A stretch of DNA of 64,000 nt from an uncultured Thermoleophilia bacterium (GTDB taxonomy: Bacteria; Actinomycetota; Thermoleophilia; UBA2241). A program made the translations under genes and the position numbers. Of this stretch, positions 25,060 through 53,576 are shown one piece after another. The stretch's first letter is position 1. Every line of letters begins with the position of its first letter. Under the pieces are notes generated by a model. That model made no database searches and was not told the origin of the DNA. It saw nothing but the letters and a program-made list of their open reading frames with translations. The stretch is taken from contig CAVTPJ010000002.1 in NCBI GenBank assembly GCA_963736645.1, positions 266,779-330,778 of the forward strand. The letters run 5' to 3'.

Positions 25060-25241
25060 TCTCTGAGCGCAGGCAACGTCACACCAGCTGATGGTGGCCC
25101 TCCAGATGGAGGCTAGTCCGACGCACCCCTAACGGCTCACGAGGATCGGCGCCAATTCCTGTGGCGGCTGGCGCCTCCGAATCTGATGGCCATTGACTCG
25201 CCGAAGTCTGAGCGGGCCGCCCTCCAAGCCGCCACTGACTC

Positions 25242-27626: not shown

Positions 27627-27713
27627 GATCTCCGTTCCTCTCCGCTGGTGCCTCAGCGACCCAGCCGCTCTCCGATTGCCTGCGGCGCTGCGCGCGCAGG
27701 CTTCACGGGCGCC

Positions 27714-29677: not shown

Positions 29678-29972
29678 TGTTCCTCTGGTCGATGGGGAGA
29701 CCGGCGGGCGCGCAGCGCAGGGGGGATACCGCTGGCGCCCGCCGGCCTGTCAGCCGTCCGCAGGACGGGGGATTCCTAGCCGGCCATGCAGGCTGATGTC
29801 GACGAGGCCACACCCAGGCGCCACCAGACCACGATCGAGAGCAACGTCTGCCATCCATTCCTCCTGCTCAACAATCCAAGCCATGAGACCGGTGAGCGAG
29901 TCGGGCTCCTCAGGCGAGCGGGGCCGATGGGGTCGAAAGCTCGCGACCGACCGCAGCCCATGTTCGGGGTGA

Positions 29973-30049
29973 ATACTCTGAGATACCGACGGCCGTGAGA
30001 AGTGGCCGCGGGCACGTCCCAGGGGAGCGACCAATGTGCATTTGCACAT
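29973..30049 (-). promoter_or_regulatory. Promoter/operator module copy A upstream of arcC
   Basis: Palindrome ATGTGCA-NN-TGCACAT (30034-30049), 23-bp block 29996-30018, TTCTCA-N17-GAGTAT; aligns without gaps to 53500-53576. Confidence 0.7.
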
Positions 30050-30141
30050 GAGATGCCGGCAGAGGCCTGGTGGACGAGGCGAGAGCGTGGACCTTCTCAA
30101 GAGCTCTAGGGATCGTGCTGTGCCGAATCGCACTCGAGGAC

Positions 30142-31812
30142 CTAGCTGAGAGTGCGGCCAATCTCCGAGTGCGTGCCACTGGCGGCTGCAAGCAACTCTG
30201 CAGCCTTGAATGAGACGTAAAGCTCCACCATGTCGTCCATTCGGGACAGATCGAGATCAAGCACCGCTTCGATCCGAGCGAGTCTCTTGTACAGGGTGTT
30301 GCGATGCACGAACAGCTCTCGCGTCGTCTCCTGAACTGACGTACCGTTCTTGAAATACGCGCGCAGGGTCTCAACGAGTAAGGTGTGATGAACACGGTCA
30401 TGTTCAATCAACGGACGCACAAGCCGGTCGCTCATGGCCGCCAGTGCGTCCGGACTCTGCCCGCCGAGAAGCCGGAATTCGTTGTCGGCCTCGTCGAACA
30501 GGACGATGCTCTCGTTTACACCTGCCCCGTCGCGAGCAGACCGACAGGCCTCTTGAGCCTGCCTAAGGAGAGACGCCGGCCTAGATGGCCCAACCCAACC
30601 GCCTGAGACGCCGATACAGGTAGTCACCTCAGGGACTCCATCCTGTACCTGCCTCTGGGCCCTTGTGAACGCTTCGAATACGACCTCTCTGCCTGCCTCC
30701 TCAAAGACCGCCAGGACGATGACCTCAGCCTCCATCACGCATGAAATCGCTGAGACATGGGCTGAATGAAGACCCTCCTCTGCGGCGTCTGCGACGCGCC
30801 GTAGAATCGACTCTCGTTCCTGCGGTGATGAGGGAAACTTGCGCCCGGTGTGCTGTCGAGCCTCCACGCCCAGTACCGCCACCCGCCATGGGTCCCCCAG
30901 GTCGATGCCGGCAGCTTGGAGCTTGTCAGTCAGATCATGCGCACCCTCTTCTCGAGAGAGCAGATCCTGGAGGAGCGCCGAAGTCAGGTTCCTGCGAAAC
31001 CGCATCGCCTCACGCTCGGCCAGCAGACTGACCCCGATGAGACGCTGGGCGTGGGACAAGGTGACATCGATGAGGATTGAGGTCACCTGGGCTCGAGGGA
31101 CGACGGCGACGAGCACTCTCGTGAGCTCCCCGTGCACAACGACACGACGCACATAGATGCGCAGTTTCCCCGCCTCGATCACGCCCGTCGGGCCTCCGCT
31201 GAGATGCGCCCCCTCGACGGTGCTCCAGACGGAGCCTATATCGAACTCATCGCCTCGACTGGCTACCGCCAGAATCCCACCCGCGGGATCGAAGAGGATC
31301 ATCGAGAGGTCGAGCGTCTCTGATAGACGCAGGATGATCTCTGCTGCACCCTTCTCATCTACGAGCAGGTCAAGGAGCTGGCTCTGAACGGCGAGAGCGC
31401 GCCGTAACCAGTGCATGTCCATCGAGGACAGTGAGTGGTACACGTACGAGACGATATCTCGCAGTGCGAGCGACCTTGGGGCCTCGACGACGGGCAGGCC
31501 GAGCATCTTGGCGTGGTCGATGGCCTCGGGCGGTACATGGTCAAGATACTCACCAACAGCAACCACCAGCGCAGACGTCTTCCCCGAGATCGTGTCAAGG
31601 TAGCGGTTGGCCGCGTCCGTCGATTCGACCAGGTCCGCCCCATGAGTGATCAGAAGAGTGCCCTCTGTCATCCACTGCGTCGGATCCGAAAGGTCGGAGT
31701 GGTGTACGTGAACAATCACTCTGGAGAGCCCTAGATCTCCCGTGACAACGGTCAGGCCGAACTCAGCCTCGGCGACCAGCTCGCCTAAGGTCAGCTCCTC
31801 GCTGACGGTCAT
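30142..31812 (-). CDS. PucR/CdaR-family transcriptional regulator
   Basis: N-term HVHHSDLSDPTQWMTEGTLLITHG; C-term LVETLRAYF...LFVHRNTLYKRLARIE HTH. Confidence 0.92.
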   Translation of the reverse strand: MTVSEELTLGELVAEAEFGLTVVTGDLGLSRVIVHVHHSDLSDPTQWMTEGTLLITHGADLVESTDAANRYLDTISGKTSALVVAVGEYLDHVPPEAIDHAKMLGLPVVEAPRSLALRDIVSYVYHSLSSMDMHWLRRALAVQSQLLDLLVDEKGAAEIILRLSETLDLSMILFDPAGGILAVASRGDEFDIGSVWSTVEGAHLSGGPTGVIEAGKLRIYVRRVVVHGELTRVLVAVVPRAQVTSILIDVTLSHAQRLIGVSLLAEREAMRFRRNLTSALLQDLLSREEGAHDLTDKLQAAGIDLGDPWRVAVLGVEARQHTGRKFPSSPQERESILRRVADAAEEGLHSAHVSAISCVMEAEVIVLAVFEEAGREVVFEAFTRAQRQVQDGVPEVTTCIGVSGGWVGPSRPASLLRQAQEACRSARDGAGVNESIVLFDEADNEFRLLGGQSPDALAAMSDRLVRPLIEHDRVHHTLLVETLRAYFKNGTSVQETTRELFVHRNTLYKRLARIEAVLDLDLSRMDDMVELYVSFKAAELLAAASGTHSEIGRTLS

Positions 31813-32021
31813 GTTCTCTCCTGCCCGGCCTGTTGTGGTCGCCCGCGCAATTCCCGGCGTGCTGCCTTCAACACATCCGCCGCTGCCCCACGATGCTGAG
31901 CGTGATCCTTGCGAGCGACCGTGCTGTACGTGGTGCCCAAGGTGGGCACGACGCAAGTCTACAGGAACATGCTGCCGACACCGTTCGAGTCCCGCTCATC
32001 AGGCGAGTGCTCGGGACAACC

Positions 32022-33041
32022 TCACTCGGACTCGGCCGCCCCCACCCCTAGGATGCTCGTCAAGAGGGCCATGCGGATCACCACCCCGTATGCCACTGCC
32101 TCGAAGTAGAGCTGGCTGGGAGTCGCGTCGATGCGAAGATCCATTTCGCCGGCCCTGCGAGGCAACGTGTGCGTGACGTAGATCGTCCGGTCTTCGGTCT
32201 GCTGCACACGCACGAGCGTCTCATGGCGAACATAGTAGTTGTCCATGACCTTCTTGAACGCCTCGGCTTCGGACCCCTTGGGTGCGCTGCAGCCGGGCAG
32301 GTAGACCACGTCCACATCGGCAATCAGCTCGTTGAACGTGTCCTGGGTGAGATCGAACTCCTCGCGAAGCACACCTCCGGTGCTGGAGATGCGCTCGATC
32401 ACATCGCTAGGGGTGCGCCTCGACGCCTGGCTGGCCAGAGTCACGTCGGCGCCAAGGCGCGCAAGGCCCTGGGCCATCGAATGACCGGTGCGGGCCTCAA
32501 CGAGATCAGCGCTTGCCACGCAGACCTTCAACCCTTCAACTCTCCCAAAGGTCCGGTAGAGAGTGAACAGGTCGAGGAGGGCTTGAGTCGGATGCTCCCA
32601 GTGGCCCCATCCGGCGTTGATGACCGGACATTCCGAGCTCGGGACTGCCGCACGTGCTTCCTCCGAGTCGAAATGGCGCAGAACGGTCACGTCGGCGTAC
32701 TTCGACACGACCCGCAGCATGTCGGAAAGGCTCTCCTCTTTCGCCGCAGAGGACGTCACTAGGGGGCTGGCCTCCGTGAGGACGGAACCACCCAAGCGAA
32801 GCATCGCAGTCTCAAAGCTGAGCCTGGTGCGGGTGCTGGGCTGGAAGAACAGCGCCAGCAGGACTCTTCCGGAAAGCAGGTCGATCCGAGACCGGCTCCA
32901 TGGCTCGAGCAGGCGGCCCAGCTCGAATAGTCCACGTATCTGGTCGTCGGTGACATCATTGATCGAGTGCAATCCTCGACCCTCGAGGCCGATGGCCGCG
33001 ACGACCGAGCGGACTGCAGTCTCCGTATCACCCTTCTTCAT
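32022..33041 (-). CDS. ATCase-like carbamoyltransferase, candidate ureidoglycine carbamoyltransferase (allantoate phosphorolysis)
   Basis: FFQPSTRTRLSF, SSAAKEESLSD, HPTQALLD, HTLPR; the ATCase aspartate-binding R-x-Q motif is replaced by YLPGCSAP. Confidence 0.85.
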   Translation of the reverse strand: MKKGDTETAVRSVVAAIGLEGRGLHSINDVTDDQIRGLFELGRLLEPWSRSRIDLLSGRVLLALFFQPSTRTRLSFETAMLRLGGSVLTEASPLVTSSAAKEESLSDMLRVVSKYADVTVLRHFDSEEARAAVPSSECPVINAGWGHWEHPTQALLDLFTLYRTFGRVEGLKVCVASADLVEARTGHSMAQGLARLGADVTLASQASRRTPSDVIERISSTGGVLREEFDLTQDTFNELIADVDVVYLPGCSAPKGSEAEAFKKVMDNYYVRHETLVRVQQTEDRTIYVTHTLPRRAGEMDLRIDATPSQLYFEAVAYGVVIRMALLTSILGVGAAESE

Positions 33042-33073
33042 CTCGTTCCCTTCCACCAGCTGCCTGCGTGACC

Positions 33074-33862
33074 TTACGCCCCTGCGGCCGAGTCTGGAGC
33101 GGCGAAGAACCCGTCTCTGTTGATGTCCTTGTACAGAAGATACGAAGCCGGTGACGATCCGGTGGCCCAGAACGACTGGGGACAGTACGGCGCCATGTAG
33201 ATGTAGTCACCCTTGAACACTTGGTGGTATCGCCCGGCCAAGTAGTACACGCCCTGCCCGTCCAGCATCAGCAGGCCGTGTTCCTGATGGTGCATCTCGA
33301 TGATGCCAATCGACCCGCCCGGATCGGCCGTCAACACGTTCATCGCCATGTCGTACGACGGGTCTGCGGTTGGGAGGAGCTCCTGGTACGTGTAGGAGGC
33401 CGGAGCTTCGGGCTTGATGCTGGGAACGTCCGACTGATGCCCTGCGACGGGATTCGGCATCGGCACTCCACGGACCGGGTCATACCTGCGCTTCGTCCAA
33501 AGGGTCTGCGAAGGCTCCGCACCCGACGCCGAGAGTGCGAACTCCGCGCCCAACGGGAAGTAGCAGAAAGCTCCGGGGGCCATCGGGTGCGCGTCGCCCG
33601 CAGCCTCGACGACAGCTTCGCCGCGCACCTGGTAGACAAAATTCTCGAAGTCCCCGCCGAGCGGCTGCAGGCTGCGTCCGCGAGTCCCGAAGTCGAGCAG
33701 GTATTGGCCCAGACACGCGCCCGGGAACCTTGGTGTCGCCAGCGGGCGAGCTATCGTGTCCTCGAAGTAGGGAAGCCGGTTGTCGACGAGGTTCTCCGGA
33801 GTGATGAGCGCATACGAGTCGGTCACGATGCCCCGTGTTGAAGCCGCTGGCGTGGTTTCCAT
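33074..33862 (-). CDS. allE: (S)-ureidoglycine aminohydrolase (bicupin)
   Basis: TRG....YALITPEN, YDMAMNVL, EMHHQEHGLLML.GQGVY, GDYIYMAPYCPQ, YLLYKDINRD. Confidence 0.88.
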   Translation of the reverse strand: METTPAASTRGIVTDSYALITPENLVDNRLPYFEDTIARPLATPRFPGACLGQYLLDFGTRGRSLQPLGGDFENFVYQVRGEAVVEAAGDAHPMAPGAFCYFPLGAEFALSASGAEPSQTLWTKRRYDPVRGVPMPNPVAGHQSDVPSIKPEAPASYTYQELLPTADPSYDMAMNVLTADPGGSIGIIEMHHQEHGLLMLDGQGVYYLAGRYHQVFKGDYIYMAPYCPQSFWATGSSPASYLLYKDINRDGFFAAPDSAAGA

Positions 33863-33950
33863 GTGACGATCCTTTCGGTTGGGTTCGGACACCCCGTTCA
33901 GTCCTCGCCGAAACGACACTTCCGGCGCCGTGACAATCGCTCTGGCTGCT

Positions 33951-34478
33951 CTACTGTCCGCCTTGGTAGAACCTCACGCGTTCATGCAGGAGGGACGATT
34001 CGGGATGACCGGGCTTCTCCTGGGCCGGGTAGCCGACGGCGATGATCGCCTCAACGACCGTGTCCGTGTCCAGCCCCAGTACACCCACAACGTAGTCGTT
34101 CGCCGACTGACCTGCGTCGTGGTCACGCAGCCGGATCTGGACCCAGCAGCTGCCCAGCCCAAGGTCGGCGGCGGCCAGGTGGACGATGAGGGAGGCGATG
34201 GAAGCATCCTCCACCCAGACGTCCGAGCGCTTCGGATGCGCACAGATTACGATGGCCAGCGGGGCGGTCCCGATGAAGGATGCCCCGATCGCCTTCGCCT
34301 CTGCGAGCTGAAGCAGCTTCGACCGATCGGTGACGACGCAGAACTCCCAGGGACGCCTGTTGGACGCAGACGGTGATCGCAGCATCGCTTCGACGAGACT
34401 GTCAACCATCTCCCGTTCCACGGGTCGGTCTCGGAACTCGCGGATGCTCCGCCGCGATCGCAACAAGTCGATGAACAT
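33951..34478 (-). CDS. Nitroreductase-family flavoprotein
   Basis: RRSIREF, SPSASNRRPWEF, AAADLGLGSCWV, IAVGYP. Confidence 0.9.
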   Translation of the reverse strand: MFIDLLRSRRSIREFRDRPVEREMVDSLVEAMLRSPSASNRRPWEFCVVTDRSKLLQLAEAKAIGASFIGTAPLAIVICAHPKRSDVWVEDASIASLIVHLAAADLGLGSCWVQIRLRDHDAGQSANDYVVGVLGLDTDTVVEAIIAVGYPAQEKPGHPESSLLHERVRFYQGGQ

Positions 34479-34598
34479 CGGCTCTCCCTTCCCTTCATCC
34501 TGCCGGGCGGCCGCACCTGGACCCTTCGGCGATTCAAGACATTCGCCACGCAGGTGGTCAGCAGCGCACGCAGAGAGTACGTTCTGTGGCGTGGCGCG

Positions 34599-35957
34599 CT
34601 AGTCGCCGCCTCGCCGCACCACCGGGGTCAACAACTGCCCGCGCGCCTCGCCGACGGGATGACCGTCTGCGACGACAGTGCGCCCGCGCGAGACCGTCCA
34701 GCGCACACGGCCGCGCAGCGGGACGCCGACCAAGCCACTGTGACGGTGCCGATACTGAAGCTCTTGCGCGGTCAGATTCCAACGTTCATCGAGATCCACG
34801 ATGGCAAAGTCCGCGTCCACGCCGGGAGCGATGGCCCCCTTGCCTGGCAGACCGAAGCGGGTGGCAACGTGACCGGTCACAGCCGCGACCGCCGCTTCGA
34901 GCCCCGCCGTGTCCGCACACTTGCTGAGGAGGACCGGGAGCGTGGTCTGGCAGCCGGAGATGCCGCCCCAGATGGCGAAGAAGTCGTCGCCGGTCTTCTC
35001 GTCCTCTGGACTTGGCGAGTGATCCGACGTGACGATCGCCCGGGGGTCGGACGCGACGTACTCCCACAGGCGATCCCGATTGAGCGCATCCCTCATCGGA
35101 GGCGAACACTTCGCTGGCGCACCGAGACGTTCAATGTCGTCTTCGACCAGCACCAGGTAGTGGCTCGCAACCTCCGCGCTGACATCGACTCCGCGTCTCT
35201 GAGCCTCGCGCACCAGCTCGAGCCCCCTCGCGGTGCTCACATGCGCGATATGCAGCGGACAGCCGGTGTCGCCGGCAAGCTCTATCGCCCGGGCGATGGC
35301 CGTGGTCTCGGCGACCGCGGGACGTGAGCCGACGTAGTCGCATGGGCCCACCCGCCCTTGGGAGCGTGCGCGGCGCGCCAGGGCCTCGGTTATCGAGTCG
35401 CTCTCAGCGTGCACCGCGACGATTGCGCCGAGTTCGGCACAGCGCTTCATACCCTCCCATAGAGTCATCTCATCCACGGACGGAAAGTCGAGCATCCCCG
35501 AATCGCACATGAACGCCTTGAACCCGATGACTCCTCGCTCGTGGAGTTCGCCGAGGCAATCGAGATTGCCGGGGACCAGACCGCCCCACAGCGCAAAATC
35601 GACGCGCGAATGTGCTCTGGCTGCCTGCAGCTTGAGATCGAAGGCTGCGCCGGTGACGGTCGTCGGCTGGGAGTTCAGGGGCATGTCGAAGTAGCTGGTC
35701 ATGCCCCCGCAGGCGAGCGCGGTCGACGCGGTCCTAAACCCTTCCCAGTCGGTCCGGCCGGGTTCATTGCAGTGCACATGGGCGTCTATGCCCCCCGGAA
35801 GGACATGCAGGCCGCCCGCATCGAGCTCGTGGGCCGCCGAGCCCGCGAGATTCGGACGCACCTCCACGATCGCTGCATCGCACACCCCGATGTCGGCGAC
35901 ATTCACCCCTTCGGGCGCGACCACCGTCCCCCCCCTGATAATGAGATCGTAATCCAC
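34599..35957 (-). CDS. allB: Allantoinase (metal-dependent cyclic amidohydrolase)
   Basis: DAHVHCNEPGRTDWEGF, DMPLNSQP, GFKAFMCDSG, HIAHVS, KCSPPMR, SDHSPS, WGGISGCQ. Confidence 0.9.
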   Translation of the reverse strand: MDYDLIIRGGTVVAPEGVNVADIGVCDAAIVEVRPNLAGSAAHELDAGGLHVLPGGIDAHVHCNEPGRTDWEGFRTASTALACGGMTSYFDMPLNSQPTTVTGAAFDLKLQAARAHSRVDFALWGGLVPGNLDCLGELHERGVIGFKAFMCDSGMLDFPSVDEMTLWEGMKRCAELGAIVAVHAESDSITEALARRARSQGRVGPCDYVGSRPAVAETTAIARAIELAGDTGCPLHIAHVSTARGLELVREAQRRGVDVSAEVASHYLVLVEDDIERLGAPAKCSPPMRDALNRDRLWEYVASDPRAIVTSDHSPSPEDEKTGDDFFAIWGGISGCQTTLPVLLSKCADTAGLEAAVAAVTGHVATRFGLPGKGAIAPGVDADFAIVDLDERWNLTAQELQYRHRHSGLVGVPLRGRVRWTVSRGRTVVADGHPVGEARGQLLTPVVRRGGD

Positions 35958-36073
35958 GGCTCAGTCAGGTGGCGGGTCCGGCGTGGAGCGGCGAACGCCT
36001 TGAGCGATCGTGGCCGCACCTTGGCGCATGTCCGCGCTGCGCCCGGCTGTTCGTCGTCCATGGTCAAACCCGT

Positions 36074-36781
36074 TCATCTCATCCCGACCTCACCGGACTC
36101 CGGAAGCTTGAACGCGCGAGCCTTTGATGTCTTGAGCCCATTCACGATCAATCCGTGAAGAAGCGTCGCGGCGGCAGGCACAGCCTCCACCACCGGCACG
36201 CTCAGCCGCGATTCGAGATGTTCACGCAGATTCACCAAGCCTCCGCAACCGAGGCAGAGGACCTCCGCCTTGTCAAGCTCTATGGCCAGCCGTCCCTCGC
36301 GCTCAAGTGCAGCCGCTGCTGCTTCCGGATCGCGATGCGCCTCGAGCACGCTGAGGCCGGTCGCACGCACCGACGCACAGCGCGACTCGACGCCGTGAAG
36401 CCGCAGCCCATCTTGGATAGGCGGGACGCCACGTTCCAGTGTGGTGAGGACCGAAAACCGGCGCCCGAGGGTCATGGCGGTCAGGAAGCTGGATTCGCCA
36501 ATGCCGACGACAGGGGAGGACGTCAGTTCACGGGCTGCGAACAGACCTGGGTCGCCAAAGCAGCCGACGATCGCACCGTCGAAGGAGCCCGCGTGTGACG
36601 TCAAGGCGTCGACAACCGCCATCGCACCCAGTACGTCGTCACGGTAGCTGTCGATGGCAGCGACTCCACGCGTGGCAGTCACCCCCATCACCTCGGCATC
36701 GGGAATCACGCGTGCGGCAGCCGAGAGCATCTGGTCGGTCATGGCCACGGTCATGTTCGGATTGATCAGCAGGATTCGCAT
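36074..36781 (-). CDS. Hydantoin/allantoin racemase (Asp/Glu racemase family)
   Basis: LINPN, GCFGDPGL, VVGIGESS, LGCGG catalytic Cys motifs. Confidence 0.9.
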   Translation of the reverse strand: MRILLINPNMTVAMTDQMLSAAARVIPDAEVMGVTATRGVAAIDSYRDDVLGAMAVVDALTSHAGSFDGAIVGCFGDPGLFAARELTSSPVVGIGESSFLTAMTLGRRFSVLTTLERGVPPIQDGLRLHGVESRCASVRATGLSVLEAHRDPEAAAAALEREGRLAIELDKAEVLCLGCGGLVNLREHLESRLSVPVVEAVPAAATLLHGLIVNGLKTSKARAFKLPESGEVGMR

Positions 36782-37070
36782 CTCGACTCCTTGCGGCACG
36801 CCATTCGGACGCGTTCGTTGACGAGGCGACACTCCGCGCACTCAGATCGACCAGATGCGCGCAATCAGGCCCGAGCCGCCCGACGGTCGCAGCATCACGT
36901 GTCAGAAGGGACGCACAGCGACAAAGCGGTCCCCAGTGAGGACGAAAGCGCCGTCCATGAGGGTCCACTGTTGCCGACGTCCAGCGCGACAGTGCGACCG
37001 AACATCCGCCGGGCGAGCAGCCGCAAGCCCAAGCCACGGCGCATGGATGGCGGCATCAGTGCAGCGCCGC

Positions 37071-37907
37071 TCACTCTGTGCCTGCCCCGGTCGTGTCATC
37101 CTTGAGCCGTGCGGGAGTCCAGCCTACGCCAGGGACCGCCGCCCGCAGTCTGCGGGTGTACTCGTGGCTCGGCTGATCCAGGACCGTCGCCGTAGGACCC
37201 GATTCGACAACGGAACCGCGATACATCACCAACGCCCTGTCGCTCACCTGCCGAACAACCGCGAGGTCATGCGAGATGAAGATGTAGGAGATACCGGTCT
37301 GCTCGCGGATATCGGCGAGGAGATTGAGGACCTGGGCCTGCACGGAGACGTCGAGGGCCGCGACGGCCTCGTCGAGGATGAGCACCCGGGGCTTCGCGGC
37401 GAGCGCCCGGGCGATCGCCACGCGCTGGCGCTGCCCGCCGGACAGGTCGCGAGGCCGCTGGCCTATGTGGTGGCTCTGTAGGCCGACCTGGTCAAAGAGC
37501 TCGGCGACACGCTCGGCGCACGCAGCGCGACTTCCACCAAAGTGCCGCCGGACGACTTCTCCAACGGCGGCTCCGACCCGCTGTTGTGGATCGAGGGACG
37601 TGTACGGGTCCTGGAAGACGATCTGGAGCTCCCTGCCTCGCCGGCGGCGTTCCGCCGTGCGGACACGGGTCCCGACGCGCTCGCGTCCGCAGACGCGGAT
37701 GACGCCTGAGGTAGCGCGCTCGAGCCCGATGAGCATCAGAGCTACCGTCGTCTTGCCGGAGCCCGACTCGCCGACGATGGCTAGGGATTCTCCCTCGGTG
37801 ATGGAAAACGACACGTCGGCGACAGCGACGTTCTCACTGCCGGTGCGACGGTTGTGGAAGACCCTGCGCAGGTCTACCGCTTCGACGACTGTCGTCGTGT
37901 CATTCAT
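37071..37907 (-). CDS. Opp/Dpp-type ABC transporter ATPase (OppF-like)
   Basis: GESGSGKTT, QIVFQDPY, LSGGQRQR, LDEAVAALDVSVQAQ. Confidence 0.92.
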   Translation of the reverse strand: MNDTTTVVEAVDLRRVFHNRRTGSENVAVADVSFSITEGESLAIVGESGSGKTTVALMLIGLERATSGVIRVCGRERVGTRVRTAERRRRGRELQIVFQDPYTSLDPQQRVGAAVGEVVRRHFGGSRAACAERVAELFDQVGLQSHHIGQRPRDLSGGQRQRVAIARALAAKPRVLILDEAVAALDVSVQAQVLNLLADIREQTGISYIFISHDLAVVRQVSDRALVMYRGSVVESGPTATVLDQPSHEYTRRLRAAVPGVGWTPARLKDDTTGAGTE

Positions 37908-38905: not shown

Positions 38906-38906
38906 C

Positions 38907-40744: not shown

Positions 40745-40748
40745 CGTC

Positions 40749-41888: not shown

Positions 41889-43531
41889 TGCACACCGCCG
41901 ATCGAGGCCGCCCACGGGTAGTAGAGATACGGGAATGAAGCCACGGCGCCACTCATACGCTTGTTCATGACGAGGATGTTTGTCTGGTAGACCAGTGGAG
42001 CCCACACCAGGTCGTCGGTGAGAATCTTCTGAAGCTTCACAACGGTCTCGGCACGCTTGGCATCATCGTATTCGGCGAAAGCCTCGCTCGTGAGCCTCGT
42101 CGCCTCGGGATTGTCGTAGTCGTTGAAGTTGTTCGGCGCCCCGGGACCCATGAAGCCGTACACATCCAGCGGGTCGGCAAAGTTGCCGTACCAGGTCGAG
42201 AGGAAGGCGTCGATGCCTTCGCGCGCCTTCGGATCCCAGTACAGACTGCCGTATCGCTGCACGGGAATCATCTTGATGTTCACGTTGAGGCCGATCTCTT
42301 CGCCGGCAGCCTTGAGGATGTTCGCTGTCTGACTGTGGGCGACTGAACTGCCCTGGGCGCCGATCGTTATCGTCTCGCCCGCCGCGCCTGCTTCGGCAAG
42401 GAGTGCCTTGCCGGCCGCAGCGTCGACACTCGGCGCCGGAATAGCATCGTAGCCGGCCTGGAACGTGGCCTCCGAGTATCCCCAAGAGGCCGGGGGCGCA
42501 AGTACCCGGGCAGGAATCGCGATTCCCTGGAACACGACGCTTGCGATCGCGGCACGGTCGGTAGCAGCCAGAAGCGCCTGACGGACACGGGGGTCAGAGT
42601 AGGGCCCCGTCGTCGCCGATGTGAGCAGGGACCAGAAAACGAGCGACTTGCCCAGATAGACACCGGTCTCGGGTGCGGTCTGAAGCTGAGTGAGGCCGGC
42701 AGGCGGCGTATAGAAGAACTGTCCGTCGATCTGCCCGCTGCGCAAAGCGTTCACCGCGGTTGATTCGTCGGCAATGAACCGAAGCTCGAGGCTCTTGACC
42801 TTCGGCTGAAGCGTGGTGTCCCAGTAGGCGTCGTTGCGGGCCATTGTGATGGACGTGCCCGACTGCCACTCTACGAACTTGAATGGGCCGGTGCCCATGA
42901 TGCCGCCTTTGGCAGTGCCGTAGTCGGTCCCCTTCGACTCCATGTACGCCCTCTGGCCGACGGTGCCGGCAGCCGAGGCCATGGCCTGGTTGAACAAAGC
43001 ATCTGGCTTCTTCAGCGTAACCGTCACCAAATCGTCAGCGGTCTTCTCGATCTTGTCGACGTTCACGAAGTAGAAGGAGAAGTACGACCCGACGTCGGGG
43101 TCAAGGCTGCGCTGCAGGCTGTACACGACGTCGTCAGCCGTCATCGGCGCTCCGTCCCAGAACGTGACACCTTGCCGGATCTTGTAGACCCAGGTCGTAG
43201 GCGTTGGATTCGTGAACGATTCCGCCAGGCCTGGCTCGATGCTGAAGTCCGGCGTGAGCCGCAACAGGCTCTCGCTCATGTTGGCGATCGATGTGTTCTC
43301 CGCGTAGTTGAACGACCTCGTCCAGTCAAGGCTGGACGGCTCGTAGGGTAGATTCCACGTGACCTTGTCGAGCTCGCCAGTGCCGGGCGGCGTCGTGGTC
43401 ATGAGGTCGTCCATGGCCGACGTCGGGGAGGCCGCGGTTGATGTCGAATCGCCTCCGCACGCGGCAACGCCGATGACGAGCATGACAAGCCCTAGCCAGA
43501 AGCCCATTCTCCACACACGCTGCATAGCCAT
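41885..43531 (-). CDS. Family-5 (Opp/Dpp) ABC substrate-binding lipoprotein
   Basis: Lipobox VAAC, EPGLAES, TFWDG, GTGPFKF, RNDAYW; AAGGAG RBS before ATG 43531. Confidence 0.9.
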   Translation of the reverse strand: MAMQRVWRMGFWLGLVMLVIGVAACGGDSTSTAASPTSAMDDLMTTTPPGTGELDKVTWNLPYEPSSLDWTRSFNYAENTSIANMSESLLRLTPDFSIEPGLAESFTNPTPTTWVYKIRQGVTFWDGAPMTADDVVYSLQRSLDPDVGSYFSFYFVNVDKIEKTADDLVTVTLKKPDALFNQAMASAAGTVGQRAYMESKGTDYGTAKGGIMGTGPFKFVEWQSGTSITMARNDAYWDTTLQPKVKSLELRFIADESTAVNALRSGQIDGQFFYTPPAGLTQLQTAPETGVYLGKSLVFWSLLTSATTGPYSDPRVRQALLAATDRAAIASVVFQGIAIPARVLAPPASWGYSEATFQAGYDAIPAPSVDAAAGKALLAEAGAAGETITIGAQGSSVAHSQTANILKAAGEEIGLNVNIKMIPVQRYGSLYWDPKAREGIDAFLSTWYGNFADPLDVYGFMGPGAPNNFNDYDNPEATRLTSEAFAEYDDAKRAETVVKLQKILTDDLVWAPLVYQTNILVMNKRMSGAVASFPYLYYPWAASIGGVQ

Positions 43532-43650
43532 CACGCTCCTTTTCACGAGTGACCCCCCCCTGTCGCTCTCAGCCGATCGAGTATGCCACACGACGAATGT
43601 CCCGCGATGTCGTGCCAGAAAGACCCTACGTCGGTGATCCGTCGCCGCAG

Positions 43651-43666
43651 ATAGGCAGATGCCCAC
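43651..43666. promoter_or_regulatory. Third copy of the palindromic operator-like box, in the oppA/hydantoinase divergent region
   Basis: ATAGGCAGATGCCCAC matches the reverse complement of 53561-53576 at 14/16 positions. Confidence 0.5.
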
Positions 43667-43861
43667 TCGTCACCGCGGTCAGTGAGCAGCAGCACAAAGG
43701 TCCCGATCAGGCTGGAATCCGGCACGAAGCCGGTCGCTCGGCGGCCATCAAGGAGGGACGATTCGATGCGGATGGCCTTCCGTGACACGTGAAACTCAAG
43801 CGACTACGCTACCGTCGAAATGGGGCCCGGCATGAGCGGGGAGGCAAGGACTGGTGGAAAC

Positions 43862-47307: not shown

Positions 47308-47308
47308 C

Positions 47309-47857
47309 TCAGGATCCCTCGTCCGTTGGCATGCCCAGCCGAGCCCAGCCTTCTCGCCGGCGATTCACCTCGTAGCCTGACGCGCCCAAGGGCGCAACGG
47401 ACGTGGAGTCGAGGGCGCGCACGGGACACACTTGCACGCAGGCGAGCTCGCCGTCGTCGTGACGCCAGTAAGGGGTGTCGCGGCACAGGTCGCACTTCGT
47501 CGACGTCCTTGACGCCGCGTCGAACCGGACGCGGCTGGGAGAGAAGTGGCAAGCCCCGATGCACTTCCGGCATCCTGTGCAGCTATCGCGATCGACGTAC
47601 CGCACGTTGAAGTGCTGCTGGTCGATCGCCAAGGCCCCCGCGGGACAGGCGGTGACGCAGGCGGCGTCCCTGCACTGGCGGCATGTGCCGAGAAGAATGT
47701 CCGTAGGAAACGAGCCGAACACGTCCTCTACGATGAGGATTCGTGCCGTGTGGAGCTGCGCCCGCCCCTCGTGCGCAAGCGCGCACATCAGCATGCAACT
47801 GCGGCAACCCGTGCACTTCCGTGGATCGCCCACGAGGTACAGGTGAGCCTCCTGCAT
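47309..47857 (-). CDS. 4Fe-4S dicluster electron-transfer subunit of the AOR
   Basis: CTGCRSCMLMC, CRQCRDAACVTACP, CTGCRKCIGAC, KCDLC, CVQVCP. Confidence 0.9.
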   Translation of the reverse strand: MQEAHLYLVGDPRKCTGCRSCMLMCALAHEGRAQLHTARILIVEDVFGSFPTDILLGTCRQCRDAACVTACPAGALAIDQQHFNVRYVDRDSCTGCRKCIGACHFSPSRVRFDAASRTSTKCDLCRDTPYWRHDDGELACVQVCPVRALDSTSVAPLGASGYEVNRRREGWARLGMPTDEGS

Positions 47858-48027
47858 GTCGCACTCGCCCTCGATGCCATCTGGACGGCCGACGTTCGCC
47901 ATCATGCAACCCCGTCTCCCGATGCCCCCAAGTGCCTGACTCACGATAGCAGCAGGGCATCACTTCGAACGGTCCGCAGAGCTGCCGCCGAACCGTCAGC
48001 CGCCCGCACCCGGCCGGCCCGCGGCGC

Positions 48028-49023
48028 TCACGCCTCGCCAAACAGACCGCGCCACTCCCGGCCCGTCTCTTCCATAAGGGAGCGGGCGCCCGAGCGCCGC
48101 ATGCGATGGAGTCGCGGCATGCCCAACTCCCACTCCTGCATCCAGCACGCCGCGAACTCGCCCCGAGCCGTTTCCTCGAAGATCTCGGCGATCTCGCCAC
48201 GATCGATCACGCGCGGTCCGCTGGTGCGGACCGCGAACTCGCAGGTGCGGCTGCTCTTGGACGAGATGTACTCCTCAATCCCGACCTCGTCCATGACATC
48301 GACGACCGACCTCAGCGAGCGAATCGCCTTCGCGTAGGCGAAATGCGGCGCACAGCCGTTGGCGACCAGCGTCTCGAAGGTAGCCCGCATGAGCGCTATC
48401 GTGCCGCCGTATAGCACCTGCTCTTCGAAGTTGTCGCCCTCCGTCTCCCACTCGAAGTCCACCGCAACCACCCCGACGCGAGTGCTGCCGCACGCCTTGG
48501 CGAGGCCGAGCACGGTCTCCCAGGCGCGACCCGTCACGTCCTGGTCAACGGCGACGGCCCCGTAGATGCCGGAGCCCTCCATGAACTTCTCGCGCACCAA
48601 GTGCCCGGGCGAGTTCGGCACGTAGAGCACGACGTCGACGTCGACCGGCGGTTTGATCGCCCCGTAGAGGACATTGAACCCACTGGCGAAGCTCAGCGTC
48701 TTGCCGGGGCTGAGCTGATCGTGAATCGCGTCACGGTAGACGGCCGGCTGGGCGGGGTCGGGAAGCAGGACGTGCACGATGTCCGCCGCTGCAGCCGCCT
48801 CAGCGATGCTCATGACCGGTAAGCCGTCAGCTTCCGCCTTGCCCCAATCCGAGAATCGCCGTCTGTCGCCGGCACCCACGATGACCGAGAGGCCGCTGTC
48901 ACGCATGCAAAGCGCCTGTGGGCCGCCTTGAACGCCGTAGCCGATCACCGCCACGACGCGGTCCTTGAGGGGCTCGAGGCTGATTTCGTGATCTCGGACG
49001 ACCTGATTCAATGTTATGTCCAT
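48028..49023 (-). CDS. Divergent ketol-acid reductoisomerase (KARI)-family oxidoreductase
   Basis: IGYGVQG, LLPDPAQ, SGFNVLYG, PNSPGHLVR, ETEGDNFEEQ, AEFA-like TCEFA. Confidence 0.85.
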   Translation of the reverse strand: MDITLNQVVRDHEISLEPLKDRVVAVIGYGVQGGPQALCMRDSGLSVIVGAGDRRRFSDWGKAEADGLPVMSIAEAAAAADIVHVLLPDPAQPAVYRDAIHDQLSPGKTLSFASGFNVLYGAIKPPVDVDVVLYVPNSPGHLVREKFMEGSGIYGAVAVDQDVTGRAWETVLGLAKACGSTRVGVVAVDFEWETEGDNFEEQVLYGGTIALMRATFETLVANGCAPHFAYAKAIRSLRSVVDVMDEVGIEEYISSKSSRTCEFAVRTSGPRVIDRGEIAEIFEETARGEFAACWMQEWELGMPRLHRMRRSGARSLMEETGREWRGLFGEA

Positions 49024-49059
49024 GGCTCCTCCGCACGCGCCCCAAGGGTGCGCCGTCCC

Positions 49060-50256
49060 CTAGCGCTGCAGTTTGGCTGCCTGAGCTTCGGCCTTGATCT
49101 TGTCCAAGTCCGCGAAGCGCGAAAGCGGCAGACGCTCCAAGTACCAGGACTTCTCACCCGTCATCACAAACCGGGCCATGTCCCGACCGATCGTGGGCGC
49201 TTCGATCACGCCGTTTCCGCCGGCGCCGGCAGCCAGCATATAGCCCTCCACGGGCGTGTCGCCGAGGATGGGAAGGAAGTCGGCGGGCTCGGCGCGATAG
49301 CCGACCCACTCGTTGCTGATCGAGGATTCCAGCAGGCGCGGGTAGACCTCCATCAACTCTCCGGTGAGGAACTCCCAGAAGTACGCATCGGTGCCCCCGG
49401 TCATCGGCAGGTCATCGGGGTCCCAGATGCCGGCATGCGTCTCATCGCTGAGGTCCATGGTCATGTGCGCCTTGCAGATGAACACGTTGTCTTTGTCCTT
49501 GCGCGCGTAGAAACGCGGGTACTTGAGGACGGGGAATGGATACCCCAGACCCGCCGCAGGGGCCAAGATGAAGACCTCCGCCTTCGTATGCCACAGCGGG
49601 AGATCGAGCCCGACGTATCCCGCAGTGGTGCGCGCCCAAGGCCCGGAGGCATCGATGACGACATCGATGTCGAAGTGACCCTTCTCAGTCGTCACGCCCG
49701 CCACCTTGCCATCTCTCATGGTGACGTCTTCGACCTTGGTTCCGATCATGATCTTGGCTCCGGCCTCACGCGCGCGGCGCACGAGGCTGTTGGCCAGCAT
49801 CGTCGCGTCGAAGAAGCCGTCGTCAGGACACCAGCCAGCGCCGAGGACCCCCTCGAGATTCAGATCCGGGATGATCTCGTGGATCTTCGCGTGGTCGTGC
49901 CAGTACTCTGCGGTATAGCCGGACGCCACCGCCAAGTCGACCGCCCGCATGACGTAGGTCTCGTAGTCCTTGTATGGCGCGACGGTCAGCGTGCCGGTCC
50001 GCTCGAAGCCCGTGGAACCGGGCTCTTCCTTCTCCATGCCCGTGTAGAACCTGAAGCCGAAGAGCCGGACCGACCAGAACTCGTGCGCGACGGAATCGTC
50101 GATCAGGCAGAAGGTCGCGGCCGACTTGGCCGTCGTGCCTGAGCCGATGGTGTTCTTCTCAAAGACCGTGACATCCGCGTCAGGGTACTGGCTGAGGAAA
50201 TACGCGATAGATGCGCCGACGATGCCGCCGCCTACGACGCCGACTCTCTTCTTCAT
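49060..50256 (-). CDS. FAD-dependent amine/amino-acid oxidoreductase (DAO/sarcosine oxidase beta family)
   Basis: VVGGGIVGASIAY, GSGTTAKSA, DASGPWA, PILG, GGNGVIEAPTIG. Confidence 0.88.
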   Translation of the reverse strand: MKKRVGVVGGGIVGASIAYFLSQYPDADVTVFEKNTIGSGTTAKSAATFCLIDDSVAHEFWSVRLFGFRFYTGMEKEEPGSTGFERTGTLTVAPYKDYETYVMRAVDLAVASGYTAEYWHDHAKIHEIIPDLNLEGVLGAGWCPDDGFFDATMLANSLVRRAREAGAKIMIGTKVEDVTMRDGKVAGVTTEKGHFDIDVVIDASGPWARTTAGYVGLDLPLWHTKAEVFILAPAAGLGYPFPVLKYPRFYARKDKDNVFICKAHMTMDLSDETHAGIWDPDDLPMTGGTDAYFWEFLTGELMEVYPRLLESSISNEWVGYRAEPADFLPILGDTPVEGYMLAAGAGGNGVIEAPTIGRDMARFVMTGEKSWYLERLPLSRFADLDKIKAEAQAAKLQR

Positions 50257-50316
50257 TTCTCCTCCTCGTTGGCATCCGTCCACGCTTCTCTCGCCGATCC
50301 AGTGTGGCTTGCCGGA

Positions 50317-51288
50317 CTACAGCCAGACCGGATGCACGCCTCGGGTCTGGAGTCGGTCGATCAGCACGGGCAGGAACTCGTTCAGATCGGCCACGATTCC
50401 GATGTCCGCTTGCGTGAAGATCGCGGCGTCTTCGTCGTTGTTCACGGCCGCGACCACTCGGGAGTCGCGAATGCCGACGACGTGCTGGATGGCGCCAGAG
50501 ATGCCGACCGTTAGGCACACCTCGGGCTTCACCTTGATTCCCGACAGGCCCAGCCATTCGGGCAGCCAGTCCCGATCGGACGAGACGGGCCTGGAGCAAC
50601 CCACCTGGCCACCCAGAAGACTCGCGAGACGTCGGATCATCTCGAGATGCTCCATCTCCTTCACTCCTCGGCCGACGTCCACGACCGCTTTGGCTTCCTC
50701 CAGCCGGGCGCCGCTCGTGGTCTTGGCTCTCTCGCTCACCACAGATAGCTCCGGATCGCCAGCAGGCACCTGCAGTGTCTCGGCGCGCGCCAAGCGGCCC
50801 TTGCGCGACGTGGCCTCGAAAGACTTCTCGGCCACCGTCAGCACTGTAGCACCAAGCACGAAGCGATAGCTGGCCAAGCCTGCACCACCGTACAGAACGC
50901 AGCTGGCAGTAGTCTCGCCGCTGGCTGGATCGATCGTGACATCGACCGCCCAAGCGGCATACGCCGCGCCGGCGCGTTCCGCGACACGGGGAGCGACGTC
51001 CATACCCATCTTGCTGGCGCCAATGAGCACCAGGGTCGGCTGACACACACTCATCGCCGTGGCCAAGATGGCGGCCCATCTCGCCGAATCCAGGTGGTCC
51101 GCGTCGGTCGAGTACACAACGTCCGCGCCGCTGGAGGCATAGACCTCGAGCTCGGCCGCGGCGACGTCACCGCCGAGGCACAGAGAGACCTGGCCTCCCG
51201 TCGCGTCGGCGAGCTGACGCGCCTTTCCCAGCAACTCAAGCGCTACGACCGGACGATCACTCCAGACCAGAATCCCCGCCGCCATCAC
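50317..51288 (-). CDS. etfA: Electron transfer flavoprotein alpha subunit
   Basis: LEEAKAVVDVGRG, GCSRPV, VGISGAIQHVVGI, VNNDEDAAIF. Confidence 0.92.
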   Translation of the reverse strand: MMAAGILVWSDRPVVALELLGKARQLADATGGQVSLCLGGDVAAAELEVYASSGADVVYSTDADHLDSARWAAILATAMSVCQPTLVLIGASKMGMDVAPRVAERAGAAYAAWAVDVTIDPASGETTASCVLYGGAGLASYRFVLGATVLTVAEKSFEATSRKGRLARAETLQVPAGDPELSVVSERAKTTSGARLEEAKAVVDVGRGVKEMEHLEMIRRLASLLGGQVGCSRPVSSDRDWLPEWLGLSGIKVKPEVCLTVGISGAIQHVVGIRDSRVVAAVNNDEDAAIFTQADIGIVADLNEFLPVLIDRLQTRGVHPVWL

Positions 51289-52085
51289 GCCTCGCCTCTG
51301 TACGAGAGGACGTTCTCCTGCAGCAGCATGTCGATGAGAGCATCGGCCATCGCCGTGAGGTCCATGTCCTTCAGCACACGTCGCGTGCGGTCGACCACGA
51401 TTCCCGTCTCGCTGAGCACGGAGTACCCGGAGTGCACGGCGAGTGCCTCCTTTGTCAGGCCCAACTCCTCAAGACTCCATGAGTTGTTGGGCAGCTTCTG
51501 GGCCTTCATCGCCTGCAGGAGCGTGACGGGGCGAGGTACGAACGCTTCCTCGGCGACGCTGACGATCGCAGGGAGGGGAACACTCACTGTCTGGACGCCC
51601 TCCTCGAGATCCCGGTCGGCCGTCAAGACCGCGCCGTCGACGCCGATCTCGCGAGCATGGGACACGAACGGCAGTGCCAGACGCTCCGCCAGGCGCGGCC
51701 CTGTCTGATGGGAGTAGCCGTCGTCGCTCGCAAAGCCGCAGACGATGAGGTCGAAGGGGCCACGCTTACGGATCGCGGCCTCCAGCACGCGAACGGTCAC
51801 CGCCGCATCCGCGGCACCGTCGTACGGGTCCTCGATCACAGTCGCCTCGTCCGCACCGATGGCCAGCACGCTCTTGACCGCGCCACGCGCCGCAGGCGGT
51901 CCAAAGCACAGGATCTCCACCGACGCCTCGGACCCCTCCTTCAGGCGAACGGCTGCTTCGACGGCTCCCTTGTCGAGATCGCCGAATCGTGCAGGCACAC
52001 CAGCCATGCGCATTGCACGGCTCTCCGGATTCACCCGAATCTCTGCCGCGTCGATTGAGTACTTCACCAGGGCCAGTATCTTCAA
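51285..52085 (-). CDS. etfB: Electron transfer flavoprotein beta subunit
   Basis: LVKYSID, DKGAVEAAVRLKE, AIGADEA, CGFASDDG; TTG start after GGAGGA. Confidence 0.9.
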   Translation of the reverse strand: MKILALVKYSIDAAEIRVNPESRAMRMAGVPARFGDLDKGAVEAAVRLKEGSEASVEILCFGPPAARGAVKSVLAIGADEATVIEDPYDGAADAAVTVRVLEAAIRKRGPFDLIVCGFASDDGYSHQTGPRLAERLALPFVSHAREIGVDGAVLTADRDLEEGVQTVSVPLPAIVSVAEEAFVPRPVTLLQAMKAQKLPNNSWSLEELGLTKEALAVHSGYSVLSETGIVVDRTRRVLKDMDLTAMADALIDMLLQENVLSYRGEA

Positions 52086-52314
52086 GAGTACTCCTCCACG
52101 GGTCGATGCCTCCAAAGACAGCGCTCGCTGGCTACTCTGCCTCCTGTCGCGCCTTCGCCGAGCTTGGGCACGCCGATCGCATCTCGCTGTCGTTGGGAGA
52201 TTGGGGAAGGCAGAGCGCGCCTCTCGGCGCGCCGCGAACTGATCCTGGCCCTGCGGATGGTCGCCGGGGGAGTCTGGGAGCGGCCATCGCAGGGCCGATG
52301 TTCGTCCACCTGCC

Positions 52315-53370
52315 TTACGGCACGATGCAGGCCATCACACCTTTCTGCGCGTGAAGACGGTTCTCGGCCTCGTCGTAGCACGGCGTCCCCCACTTCGGGT
52401 CGTCGAGGACCGCGTCGCTAACCTCGTAGCCTCGCTCGCAGGGAAGGCAGTGCATGTAGAAGGCAGAGTCCTTGGCCAGGCGCATCCGCTCCTCGTCCGC
52501 GATCCAACCGCGGTACTTGTCGAACAACTTGGCCATGTCCTCATGCCTCGGCTCCGCGCTGAACGGCGGCAGCATATCGAGGCAGACGTAGTTCTTGGCA
52601 TAGACGACGTCGGCGGACTCGCAGGCGTCCTCCATGCTGTCAACCTCCGCGAATGTGCCACCATTCTGCTCCACGTTGGCAATGATGGCGTCCCTGACGT
52701 CAGGGTCGATGCGAAGCTCGGGTGGATGGGCGAAGACGATGTTAGGACCGAAGTAGCTGGCCGCGTACATGAAGTCGTGGTGCGGAGCGATCGGCTTCTT
52801 GGTGCTTGGCGAGTAGGCCCAGGAAACGGCCAGCTTGCGCCCGCGAAGATCCCTCCCCAGGTGCTCCCACAGAGTCATTGCGTCGGCCATGCCCTGGTTG
52901 GGATGGTACTTGTTGTCCTCCATGTTGATCACGGGGACCTCGGCGTACTTGGCGAACTCCTGGATGATCTTCAACGACTTGTCGTAGTCCCAGTCGACAG
53001 CCCCGCCGAGGATACGGACTGCAATCGCGTCGCCCATTCTGGACAGCACGCGAGCGACATCGGCGATGCGCTCGGACTGATACGCCACATCCTCGCCCTC
53101 CAGTGTAGGCAACCGCATCGAAGACGGCTCCAAGAAGTGTGCGTGCCCGCCCAACTGAAAGATGCCGGCCTCAAAGCTGTTGCGGGTGCGCAAGGAGGGG
53201 TTGAAGAACAGCATCAGCAGCGTTCGGACCGGAAGGATGTCTTGATGGGTCCGACGCATGGCCATGTCGGCCTTGAGTCGCAGGCCGACCTCGAGCATGG
53301 TCTCGATCTCCCGTCGGCTGAAATCACGCAGAGTGATGAAGTCGCGGCCTTTGAGTCCCTCTGTGATCAA
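52315..53370 (-). CDS. YgeW/N-acylornithine-type ('knotted') carbamoyltransferase of unknown substrate
   Basis: FFNPSLRTR, HPNQGMAD, SWAYSPS..KP loop, HCLP, EAENRLH; TTG start with AAGGAG RBS. Confidence 0.87.
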   Translation of the reverse strand: MITEGLKGRDFITLRDFSRREIETMLEVGLRLKADMAMRRTHQDILPVRTLLMLFFNPSLRTRNSFEAGIFQLGGHAHFLEPSSMRLPTLEGEDVAYQSERIADVARVLSRMGDAIAVRILGGAVDWDYDKSLKIIQEFAKYAEVPVINMEDNKYHPNQGMADAMTLWEHLGRDLRGRKLAVSWAYSPSTKKPIAPHHDFMYAASYFGPNIVFAHPPELRIDPDVRDAIIANVEQNGGTFAEVDSMEDACESADVVYAKNYVCLDMLPPFSAEPRHEDMAKLFDKYRGWIADEERMRLAKDSAFYMHCLPCERGYEVSDAVLDDPKWGTPCYDEAENRLHAQKGVMACIVP

Positions 53371-53499
53371 TTCCCGTTCTCCTTTCGCACTGGCCCCAGC
53401 TCTCTATCTCGCCTCGACTCGGTGAGACTCATGGGTGGAGATTCACCGGCGAAGGTGACCGTTAGTGGTGCCTGACGCGCAGAATGACCTTCGTCGAGC

Positions 53500-53576
53500 A
53501 TGCTCTGGGAAGTCGATGGCCCTGAGAAGTGGCCGTGGGCACGTCTTGAACCTGAGCCCTGTGTGCATATGCCTAT
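53500..53576 (-). promoter_or_regulatory. Promoter/operator module copy B upstream of the knotted carbamoyltransferase operon
   Basis: Box GTGTGCATATGCCTAT (53561-53576), 23-bp block 53523-53545 (22/23 identical to copy A), TTCTCA-N17-GAGCAT. Confidence 0.7.

Follow-up and report, generated by a model that had tools for sequence, protein, structure and literature searches.

The window analysed here, a 64,000-nt stretch of DNA from an uncultured Thermoleophilia bacterium, raises the question why two similar control regions, 29973-30049 (M1) and 53500-53576 (M2), stand in front of two separate operons on the minus strand, and which regulator may act on them. Aligned on the plus strand, the two copies match without gaps at 54 of 77 positions at an offset of 23527, and a repeat finder independently paired 29963-30018 with 53490-53545 at 79% (family D19). 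Both contain a core, TGAGAAGTGGCCGYGGGCACGTC, at 29996-30018 and 53523-53545 (22/23 positions identical), and 15 nt past it a quasi-palindrome (ATGTGCATTTGCACAT at 30034-30049, GTGTGCATATGCCTAT at 53561-53576). On the minus strand this arrangement is accompanied by TTCTCA-N17-GAGTAT in M1 and TTCTCA-N17-GAGCAT in M2, and the control region of each copy amounts to approximately 90 bp. An earlier interpretation made from the letters of the window alone (the sequence-only reading) had described the gapless pair with its offset, the 22/23 core, a box of the type ATGTGCA-NN-TGCACAT 15 nt beyond it, and TTCTCA-N17-GAG(T/C)AT on the sense strand, and all of these elements were recovered in both copies. 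Its "23-bp block" is a 14-bp proximal box plus a -35-like hexamer.

The copies are specific to this locus. With up to three mismatches allowed, the core has two matches in the window compared to 0.01 expected, and in the entire assembly (3.2 Mb, 13 contigs) it matches only M1 and M2. The copies are therefore no generic genome-wide repeat, a possibility that the earlier interpretation had itself raised. An interspersed REP- or MITE-like repeat was rejected on the same count of two copies per 3.2 Mb, with which a whole-genome matrix scan agrees.

The most plausible answer, for which a probability of about 0.7 is estimated, is that each module is a bipartite operator of the PucR-family regulator encoded in the same genomic island and abuts a weak promoter that would depend on activation. 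This reading is preferred because the site is conserved and co-occurs with the regulator gene, because a consensus promoter is lacking, and because the layout matches that of the GabR system; binding, activation, effector and transcription starts are inferred from sequence comparison and analogy.

Structure of the modules and their operons

Both modules have the same parts in the same order (Table 1). If GAGYAT is taken as positions -12 to -7, the proximal box covers approximately -49 to -36, the distal one approximately -81 to -70. The box centers are 33 bp apart, which is approximately three helical turns, and the proximal one falls near -42/-43 relative to the putative transcription start, which would lie near 29965-29967 for M1 and near 53492-53494 for M2. 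The distal box of M1 attains the best Box-B score of the genome with an externally derived matrix (20.4 bits), the GTGCC-N3-GGCCAC motif of the proximal box is kept in nine modules, and A(-11), T(-7) and the spacing are kept across all nine. A search of both intergenic regions for a consensus sigma-70 promoter yielded no site with at least 9 of 12 matches, in line with the weak, non-consensus promoters that had been postulated. TTCTCA-N17-GAGYAT itself matches the sigma-70 consensus at 7 of 12 positions, with A-11, T-7 and the 17-nt spacing kept in the close modules.

M1 is located about 290 nt from the start of the carbamate kinase gene, and M2 about 125 nt from the start of a gene for a YgeW-like carbamoyltransferase. 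A 714-amino-acid open reading frame (ORF) downstream of M1 was identified as spurious, an artefact of high G + C content; the region really encodes carbamate kinase and a translationally coupled sigma-70-family protein. Both modules therefore precede minus-strand operons, and the Pfam-based gene calls agree with the earlier proposal that the copies stand before a carbamate kinase operon and a carbamoyltransferase/electron transfer flavoprotein (ETF) operon. The pucR gene ends 92 nt from the distal box of M1. PF07905, PF17853 and PF13556 were detected on the ORF 30142-31956, and the orthologs have the same domains; the start codon is probably the ATG at 31812, which gives a protein of 556 amino acids as in the orthologs.

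M2 together with its 5' untranslated region is orthologous to the corresponding regions of two metagenomic loci (L020 and L021; 68-71% identity). For the M1 leader, homology was found neither to the M2 leader nor to the leaders of relatives. A short reading frame within the leader of carbamate kinase was considered and dropped because it is out of frame with the stop codon. The minus strand of this leader contains a very stable GC hairpin at 29699-29747 (GGCCGGCGGGCGCC...GCGCGCCCGCCGGTC), some 25 nt ahead of the start of carbamate kinase, which may be a terminator or attenuator. Ortholog loci have similar hairpins (GGGCGGGCGCC) in front of the sigma gene.

Table 1. Features of the two modules and of the genes associated with them (coordinates of the window).
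Feature	Coordinates	Strand	Remarks
M1 distal box	30034-30049	-	ATGTGCAAATGCACAT; core palindrome GTGCA-AA-TGCAC at 30036-30047
M1 proximal box	30002-30015	-	GTGCCCGCGGCCAC; 20 nt from distal box, abuts -35-like hexamer
M1 putative promoter	29973-30001	-	TTCTCA 29996-30001, 17-nt spacer, GAGTAT 29973-29978
M1 putative leader of carbamate kinase operon	29678-29965	-	~288 nt (inferred)
M2 distal box	53561-53576	-	ATAGGCATATGCACAC; right half-site intact, left degenerate
M2 proximal box	53529-53542	-	GTGCCCACGGCCAC
M2 putative promoter	53500-53528	-	TTCTCA 53523-53528, 17-nt spacer, GAGCAT 53500-53505
"Third box"	43651-43666		lone weak distal-type site, oppA/hydantoinase divergent intergenic region
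PucR-family regulator	30142-31812	-	PucR + GGDEF_2 + HTH_30 (Pfam)
Operon downstream of M1	25751-29677	-	carbamate kinase, sigma-70-family gene, transketolase
Carbamate kinase (AA_kinase)	28646-29677	-	Pfam
Sigma-70-family gene	27714-28649	-	Pfam; ATGA overlap with carbamate kinase stop
Split transketolase	26610-27626 and 25751-26533	-	Pfam
Operon downstream of M2	48028-53370	-	YgeW-like gene, etfB, etfA, DAO-type FAD oxidoreductase, KARI-like gene
YgeW-like carbamoyltransferase (OTCase fold)	52315-53370	-	Pfam; TTG start

Co-occurrence of the bipartite site with PucR orthologs

A protein search showed that the orthologs of the island PucR form a small family, and an external set of seven independent loci from metagenomes and metagenome-assembled genomes (MAGs) was compiled (L020, L021 = L115, L080 = L113, L109, L110, L112 and L111), whose PucR orthologs have 51-74% identity. 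All seven carry the bipartite site upstream of the ygeW-like gene, so that the comparison of orthologous upstream regions recovered the same two boxes, the same spacing and the same distance to the -10 hexamer throughout. The shared design reads GTGCA-NN-TGCAC, 20 nt, GTGCC-NNN-GGCCAC, 22-23 nt, nAnnnT. The 20-nt distance between the boxes is identical in six loci, whereas the remaining one (L080/L113) has lost 1 nt within the proximal box, with TTCTCA-N17-GAGCAT left intact. TTCWCR-N17-GAGYAT is kept in all five close modules; as nAnnnT hexamer the distant loci have TAATCT, TAGCCT, TACTCT or CATGAT where this close group has GAGCAT. Unlike the boxes, their spacing and A-11/T-7, the spacer sequences are essentially random among loci.

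The gene content of these loci supports the same association. Scanning metagenome contigs with the PucR protein retrieved L020 and L021 (73-74% identity), in which PucR, the module, ygeW (90% identical), etfB, etfA, DAO and KARI genes follow each other in direct order; in L021/L115 the gene order after the module is that of the M2 operon of the window. When species genomes were scanned with YgeW, 67 loci were obtained; L080, which stems from a Thermoleophilia MAG, is the only one of them with an upstream PucR ortholog (67%) and also the only one with the module. In L111, PucR and the ygeW operon are convergent and PucR is not the upstream neighbor, yet the site is again found before ygeW. Conversely, none of about 55 loci with ygeW orthologs (57-91% identity) but no PucR ortholog has the bipartite site, and no regulator gene other than PucR is shared by all site-bearing loci. 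The earlier proposal that these are sites of the island PucR is supported by this distribution (7/7 PucR loci versus 0/~55 PucR-free ygeW loci). All relatives have one module copy per locus, always before ygeW.

In the distant loci L109, L111, L112 and L113 the ygeW-like gene is followed by genes of the glycine-cleavage H and P subunits and not by ETF, DAO and KARI genes, and lipoate ligase, Lpd and carbamate kinase are sometimes added. One regulator and operator thus appear to be combined with two enzyme sets. Same-genus loci (L004-L008) encode a more distant regulator, PucR' (35-37% identity), and a ygeW' of about 50% identity; they show only a related box, GTGCA-CC-TGCAC, and lack the bipartite site. 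The occurrence of this box in the intergenic region of L004 (1196-1300; genome G013) and L005 (genome G003) suggests that the different PucR subfamily of these genomes has a related half-site preference. A scan of 185,579 species genomes, possibly not including the genome analysed here, gave no match to the exact pattern GCAWATGCAC-N20-GTGCC-N3-GGCCAC; this pattern misses the distant modules because they have C at the W position (CT-type).

Genome-wide specificity and constraint

A position matrix was built from the seven external sites alone and used to scan both strands of the genome (6.4 million positions). M2 (24.0 bits) and M1 (23.5 bits) ranked first and second, and the third-ranking position reached 4.8 bits. 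Across about 109 fetched loci the bipartite score exceeded 43 bits at the sites and was at most 13 elsewhere, the latter group taking in the PucR-free ygeW loci and all loci with orthologs of the island sigma gene. The low bipartite score of L080 is due to its 1-nt indel only.

The divergence between the copies is distributed unevenly. Over 92 nt, M1 shares 66% identity with M2, and M2 shares 67% with its orthologs in L020/L021. Since the likeness within the window is thus no greater than that between genomes, either the duplication is old or the copies came from different sources. Among the 34 columns conserved in at least six of the seven external sites M1 equals M2 at 29, compared to 32 of the 58 variable columns (Fisher p=0.003), and in the 20-nt spacer the copies match at 8 of 20 positions. 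This block-wise agreement argues that the boxes are constrained in both copies.

Activation or repression

In the proposed mechanism, an oligomeric PucR would bind the two boxes from the same side of the helix, respond to an intermediate of the pathway and bring in RNA polymerase at a promoter that is too weak to work unaided. At M2 this would turn on the operon of the YgeW-like carbamoyltransferase and the ETF/dehydrogenase genes, by which carbamoyl phosphate would be released; at M1 it would turn on carbamate kinase, which would convert carbamoyl phosphate to ATP, together with the sigma factor and transketolase.

The same boxes might instead be operators of a repressor, with PucR or another factor occluding the promoter until an inducer releases it. 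The proximal box does abut and overlap the -35 region, and PucR of Bacillus subtilis can be both an activator and a repressor (PMC7652997). This interpretation is nevertheless considered improbable: the promoters are expected to be nearly silent unaided because they are far from consensus, box centers near -42 and -75 are typical for activators, and all characterized PucR-type regulators other than that of B. subtilis activate transcription (PMC7652997).

Several points also weigh against the preferred interpretation as a PucR-dependent, activated promoter. The external set comprises only seven independent sites, and the co-occurrence with PucR would be compatible with another factor acting at one of the boxes. 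The left half of the distal box of M2 is degenerate, and the hexamers match the consensus at only 4/6 (-35) and 3/6 (-10) positions, with G at -12. Finally, about 288 nt and the stable hairpin 29699-29747, which could terminate or attenuate transcription, separate M1 from carbamate kinase.

The island sigma factor

The presence of a sigma-70-family gene in the M1 operon raises the question whether its product could read the promoter half of the modules (TTCTCA-N17-GAGCAT, with G at -12). Sigma factor and promoter would then form a self-reinforcing pair, with PucR as an additional input. Besides the translational coupling of the sigma gene to carbamate kinase downstream of M1, the protein itself makes this conceivable: it differs from primary sigma factors in the stretches where the -10, extended -10 and -35 elements are read (CSGEYVRQ among them) and belongs to a distinct clade, with 58-85% identity within the clade and about 50-55% to primary sigmas. 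In addition, the close modules share the unusual G at -12 and the conserved -35-like hexamer. Other observations speak against it. Orthologs of the sigma gene, always followed by transketolase, end other nitrogen-heterocycle catabolic clusters (with adenine deaminase, formamidase, cyclase, FTCD and serine dehydratase), and none of the eight sigma-ortholog loci fetched from such clusters has the module. Furthermore, a scan of the own genome for TTCWCR-N16-18-GAGYAT gave the two modules and otherwise only coding-like matches, and more distant modules have ordinary TAnnnT -10 hexamers. The genome of L080 possesses PucR and a TTCTCA-N17-GAGCAT module but no sigma ortholog (its best match has 51% identity), an absence that is weak evidence because the bin is fragmented. 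The idea that the sigma factor reads the module promoters is weakened by these results and is regarded as unlikely.

A two-tier circuit is just as doubtful, in which PucR acting at M1 would induce the altered sigma factor and the latter would prefer either the G(-12) GAGCAT/TTCTCA promoters of M1 and M2 or targets not recognized here. If it existed, this would constitute a self-amplifying, horizontally portable set of regulator, sigma factor and promoter for ureide/purine fermentation.

The genes of the sigma factor (about 288 amino acids) and transketolase form a conserved pair, found at 25751-28649 and in loci L009-L019 from several metagenomes. The sigma-ortholog loci also share a strongly conserved intergenic region of about 200 nt, rich in GC hairpins, upstream of the cyclase/FTCD genes (L009 6581-6782, L011 8037-8238, L012 6579-6780, L015 8036-8234, L018 6470-6671). 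This region, which does not occur in the window, had no Rfam match and is a candidate leader or riboswitch.

Two module copies for a split pathway

Under the preferred reading as a PucR operator with an activated promoter, the duplication can be related to the enzymes encoded behind it. YgeW-type enzymes release carbamoyl phosphate by phosphorolysis of the ureido group, and carbamate kinase uses it to form ATP (PMC12507026). Carbamate kinase is co-transcribed with ygeW in the relatives L113, L111, G013 and G003, the order being PucR-[module]-ygeW-gcvH-gcvP-gcvP-carbamate kinase in L113, ygeW-gcvH-gcvP-gcvP-carbamate kinase in L111, and PucR'-ygeW'-carbamate kinase in the same-genus genomes G013 and G003, whose carbamate kinases are 74-76% identical to that of the window. 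In the window, 23.5 kb separate ygeW from carbamate kinase, and either gene is preceded by its own module. The second copy would thus keep the split ygeW and carbamate kinase genes under common regulation.

The gene order of the island is a circular permutation of the relatives' PucR-[module]-ygeW...carbamate kinase arrangement, and the G + C content changes at both copies, from 0.695 in the transketolase-sigma-carbamate kinase region (24762-29972) to 0.644 at 30050-53499 and to about 0.71 outside, which suggests past recombination at or near the module. A relic of a tandem duplication was sought by blastx and blastn upstream of M2, and the 3' end of PucR was not found there. The approximately 400 nt between the new ftsW stop and M2 (53577-53982) contain no ORF matching a family and have no homology to relatives or to PucR loci, and the 3' end of ftsW comes from island DNA.

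The same rearrangement could have left only M2 in function, with M1 stranded behind PucR as a relic that does not drive carbamate kinase. In the relatives the module stands between PucR and ygeW, immediately after the former, and a rearrangement would therefore leave a copy just where M1 is situated; the permuted gene order, the G + C steps, and the long leader and strong hairpin in front of carbamate kinase would fit as well. Against this stands the state of M1 itself, whose distal palindrome is perfect and whose proximal box, spacing and A-11/T-7 are kept, next to spacers of only about 40-65% identity. The retention of the boxes while the spacers drift argues for continued selection. Judged by the external matrix, M1 is also as good a site as M2, no other promoter is recognizable for carbamate kinase, and this gene is co-regulated with ygeW everywhere else. 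A defunct M1 therefore appears unlikely, and two working copies of the PucR operator remain the favored explanation.

Ends of the island and structured RNA

The modules lie within a 29.3-kb island (24762-54028) that interrupts the dcw cluster between ftsW and murG. Read along the minus strand, murE, murF, mraY, murD and ftsW (53983-55443) are followed by M2, the ygeW-like operon and AOR. Next are the hydantoinase gene (on the plus strand) and the minus-strand genes for OppA, an A_deaminase-like protein and OppBCDF, and then hydantoin racemase, amidohydrolase, nitroreductase, cupin, an OTC-like gene, PucR and M1. The M1 operon is followed by murG (ending at about 24760).

Since the G + C content drops from about 0.71 to 0.644 exactly between the copies, the reading of M1 and M2 as attachment sites or recombination scars that terminate a mobile 23.5-kb segment was tested. 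The copies are indeed direct repeats that bracket the segment of low G + C content. The true ends of the island, however, are marked by another direct repeat, GAAGGAGTCACATTGC, whose two 16-bp copies at 24746-24761 and 54029-54044 are identical; it contains the ribosome-binding site and start of murG. Same-genus genomes (G001, G006 and others; about 90% nucleotide identity) have an uninterrupted ftsW-murG junction, that is, an empty site. The modules are internal, 453 bp and 5.2 kb from the ends, and were rejected as island ends. No integrase was found among the ORFs screened with Pfam, relatives have a single module before ygeW, and the genome has only the two copies.

As a variant of this explanation, the copies might encode a structured RNA. 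At gathering thresholds, Rfam detected one tRNA and otherwise nothing in the window, and the covariation term of RNAalifold was penalizing (+3.92), the paired columns being mostly invariant positions of the palindromes; an RNA element or riboswitch was therefore rejected. The scar reading, including its variants as a generic repeat or structured RNA, is very improbable.

The third box

In the sequence-only reading a third site in the divergent region between oppA and hydantoinase had been added to the regulon. The described 14/16 match exists, to the degenerate variant of M2 (0.07 matches expected at up to three mismatches), and it is located in true intergenic DNA, the likely start of oppA being a lipoprotein signal (MAMQRV...) near 43531. 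Its proposed membership in the regulon was not supported. The score with the distal-box matrix derived from orthologs is marginal (9.7 bits, equaled by 263 genome positions), and a sub-matrix scan found no proximal box next to it. The expected number of such sites is approximately 0.02 for this intergenic region and about 0.2 for all intergenic DNA of the island. The third box may thus be a weak auxiliary site or have arisen by chance.

Significance and comparison with known systems

The modules represent a genuine regulatory cassette, specific, conserved and of a familiar type, with a new and well-defined operator for its PucR subfamily. The analysis provides a precise operator consensus for an uncharacterized subfamily (GTGCA-NN-TGCAC, 20 nt, GTGCC-NNN-GGCCAC, 22-23 nt, -10) that probably governs YgeW-type carbamoyltransferase pathways in uncultured Actinomycetota, judging from gene context and site conservation. 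It also offers an example of a split operon in which the producer and the consumer of carbamoyl phosphate would be kept co-regulated by a second whole operator-promoter cassette. The mechanism is conventional; the results are useful for annotation, for the prediction of regulons and for the design of biosensors rather than as new biology.

YgeV of Escherichia coli is an enhancer-binding protein of the sigma-54 type, outside the PucR family. The E. coli ygeV-ygeW locus resembles the island in having a dedicated regulator gene beside ygeW and in using YgeW and carbamate kinase for ATP formation, and its intergenic region has a Crp site (PMC12507026). The E. coli control region shows no sequence relation to the module. 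Within the protein family of the island PucR, to which B. subtilis PucR, AdeR, PutR/PrcR, Rhodococcus IppR and Mycobacterium tuberculosis MabR belong, the usual target is an inverted repeat (PMC13599513), and most of these regulators bind such repeats in front of operons for catabolism or biosynthesis. PucR of B. subtilis likewise controls purine/ureide catabolism but recognizes a non-palindromic box, and the IppR site differs (ACCGGATGCGACCTGCGCATTGGT). Among the reported PucR-family operators none was found with GTGCA-NN-TGCAC/GTGCC-NNN-GGCCAC or with a fixed 20-nt spacer.

GabR of Corynebacterium glutamicum, a PucR-type activator of the gabTDP promoter, binds as an octameric protein to two inverted repeats between -87 and -23, directly upstream of the -35 element (PMC7652997), and most PucR-type regulators are activators. 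The island system departs from GabR in its box sequence and size (12 and 14 bp versus 21 bp), in the GGDEF-like domain that PucR has and GabR lacks, in the co-directional, upstream position of pucR in contrast to the divergent gabR, and in having two target promoters. Both systems have in common a PucR-family regulator with a C-terminal HTH_30 domain, two inverted-repeat boxes of which the proximal one is immediately upstream of the -35 element, and a regulator gene beside a target operon for the catabolism of nitrogen compounds, the regulation itself being predicted from sequence in the case of the island.

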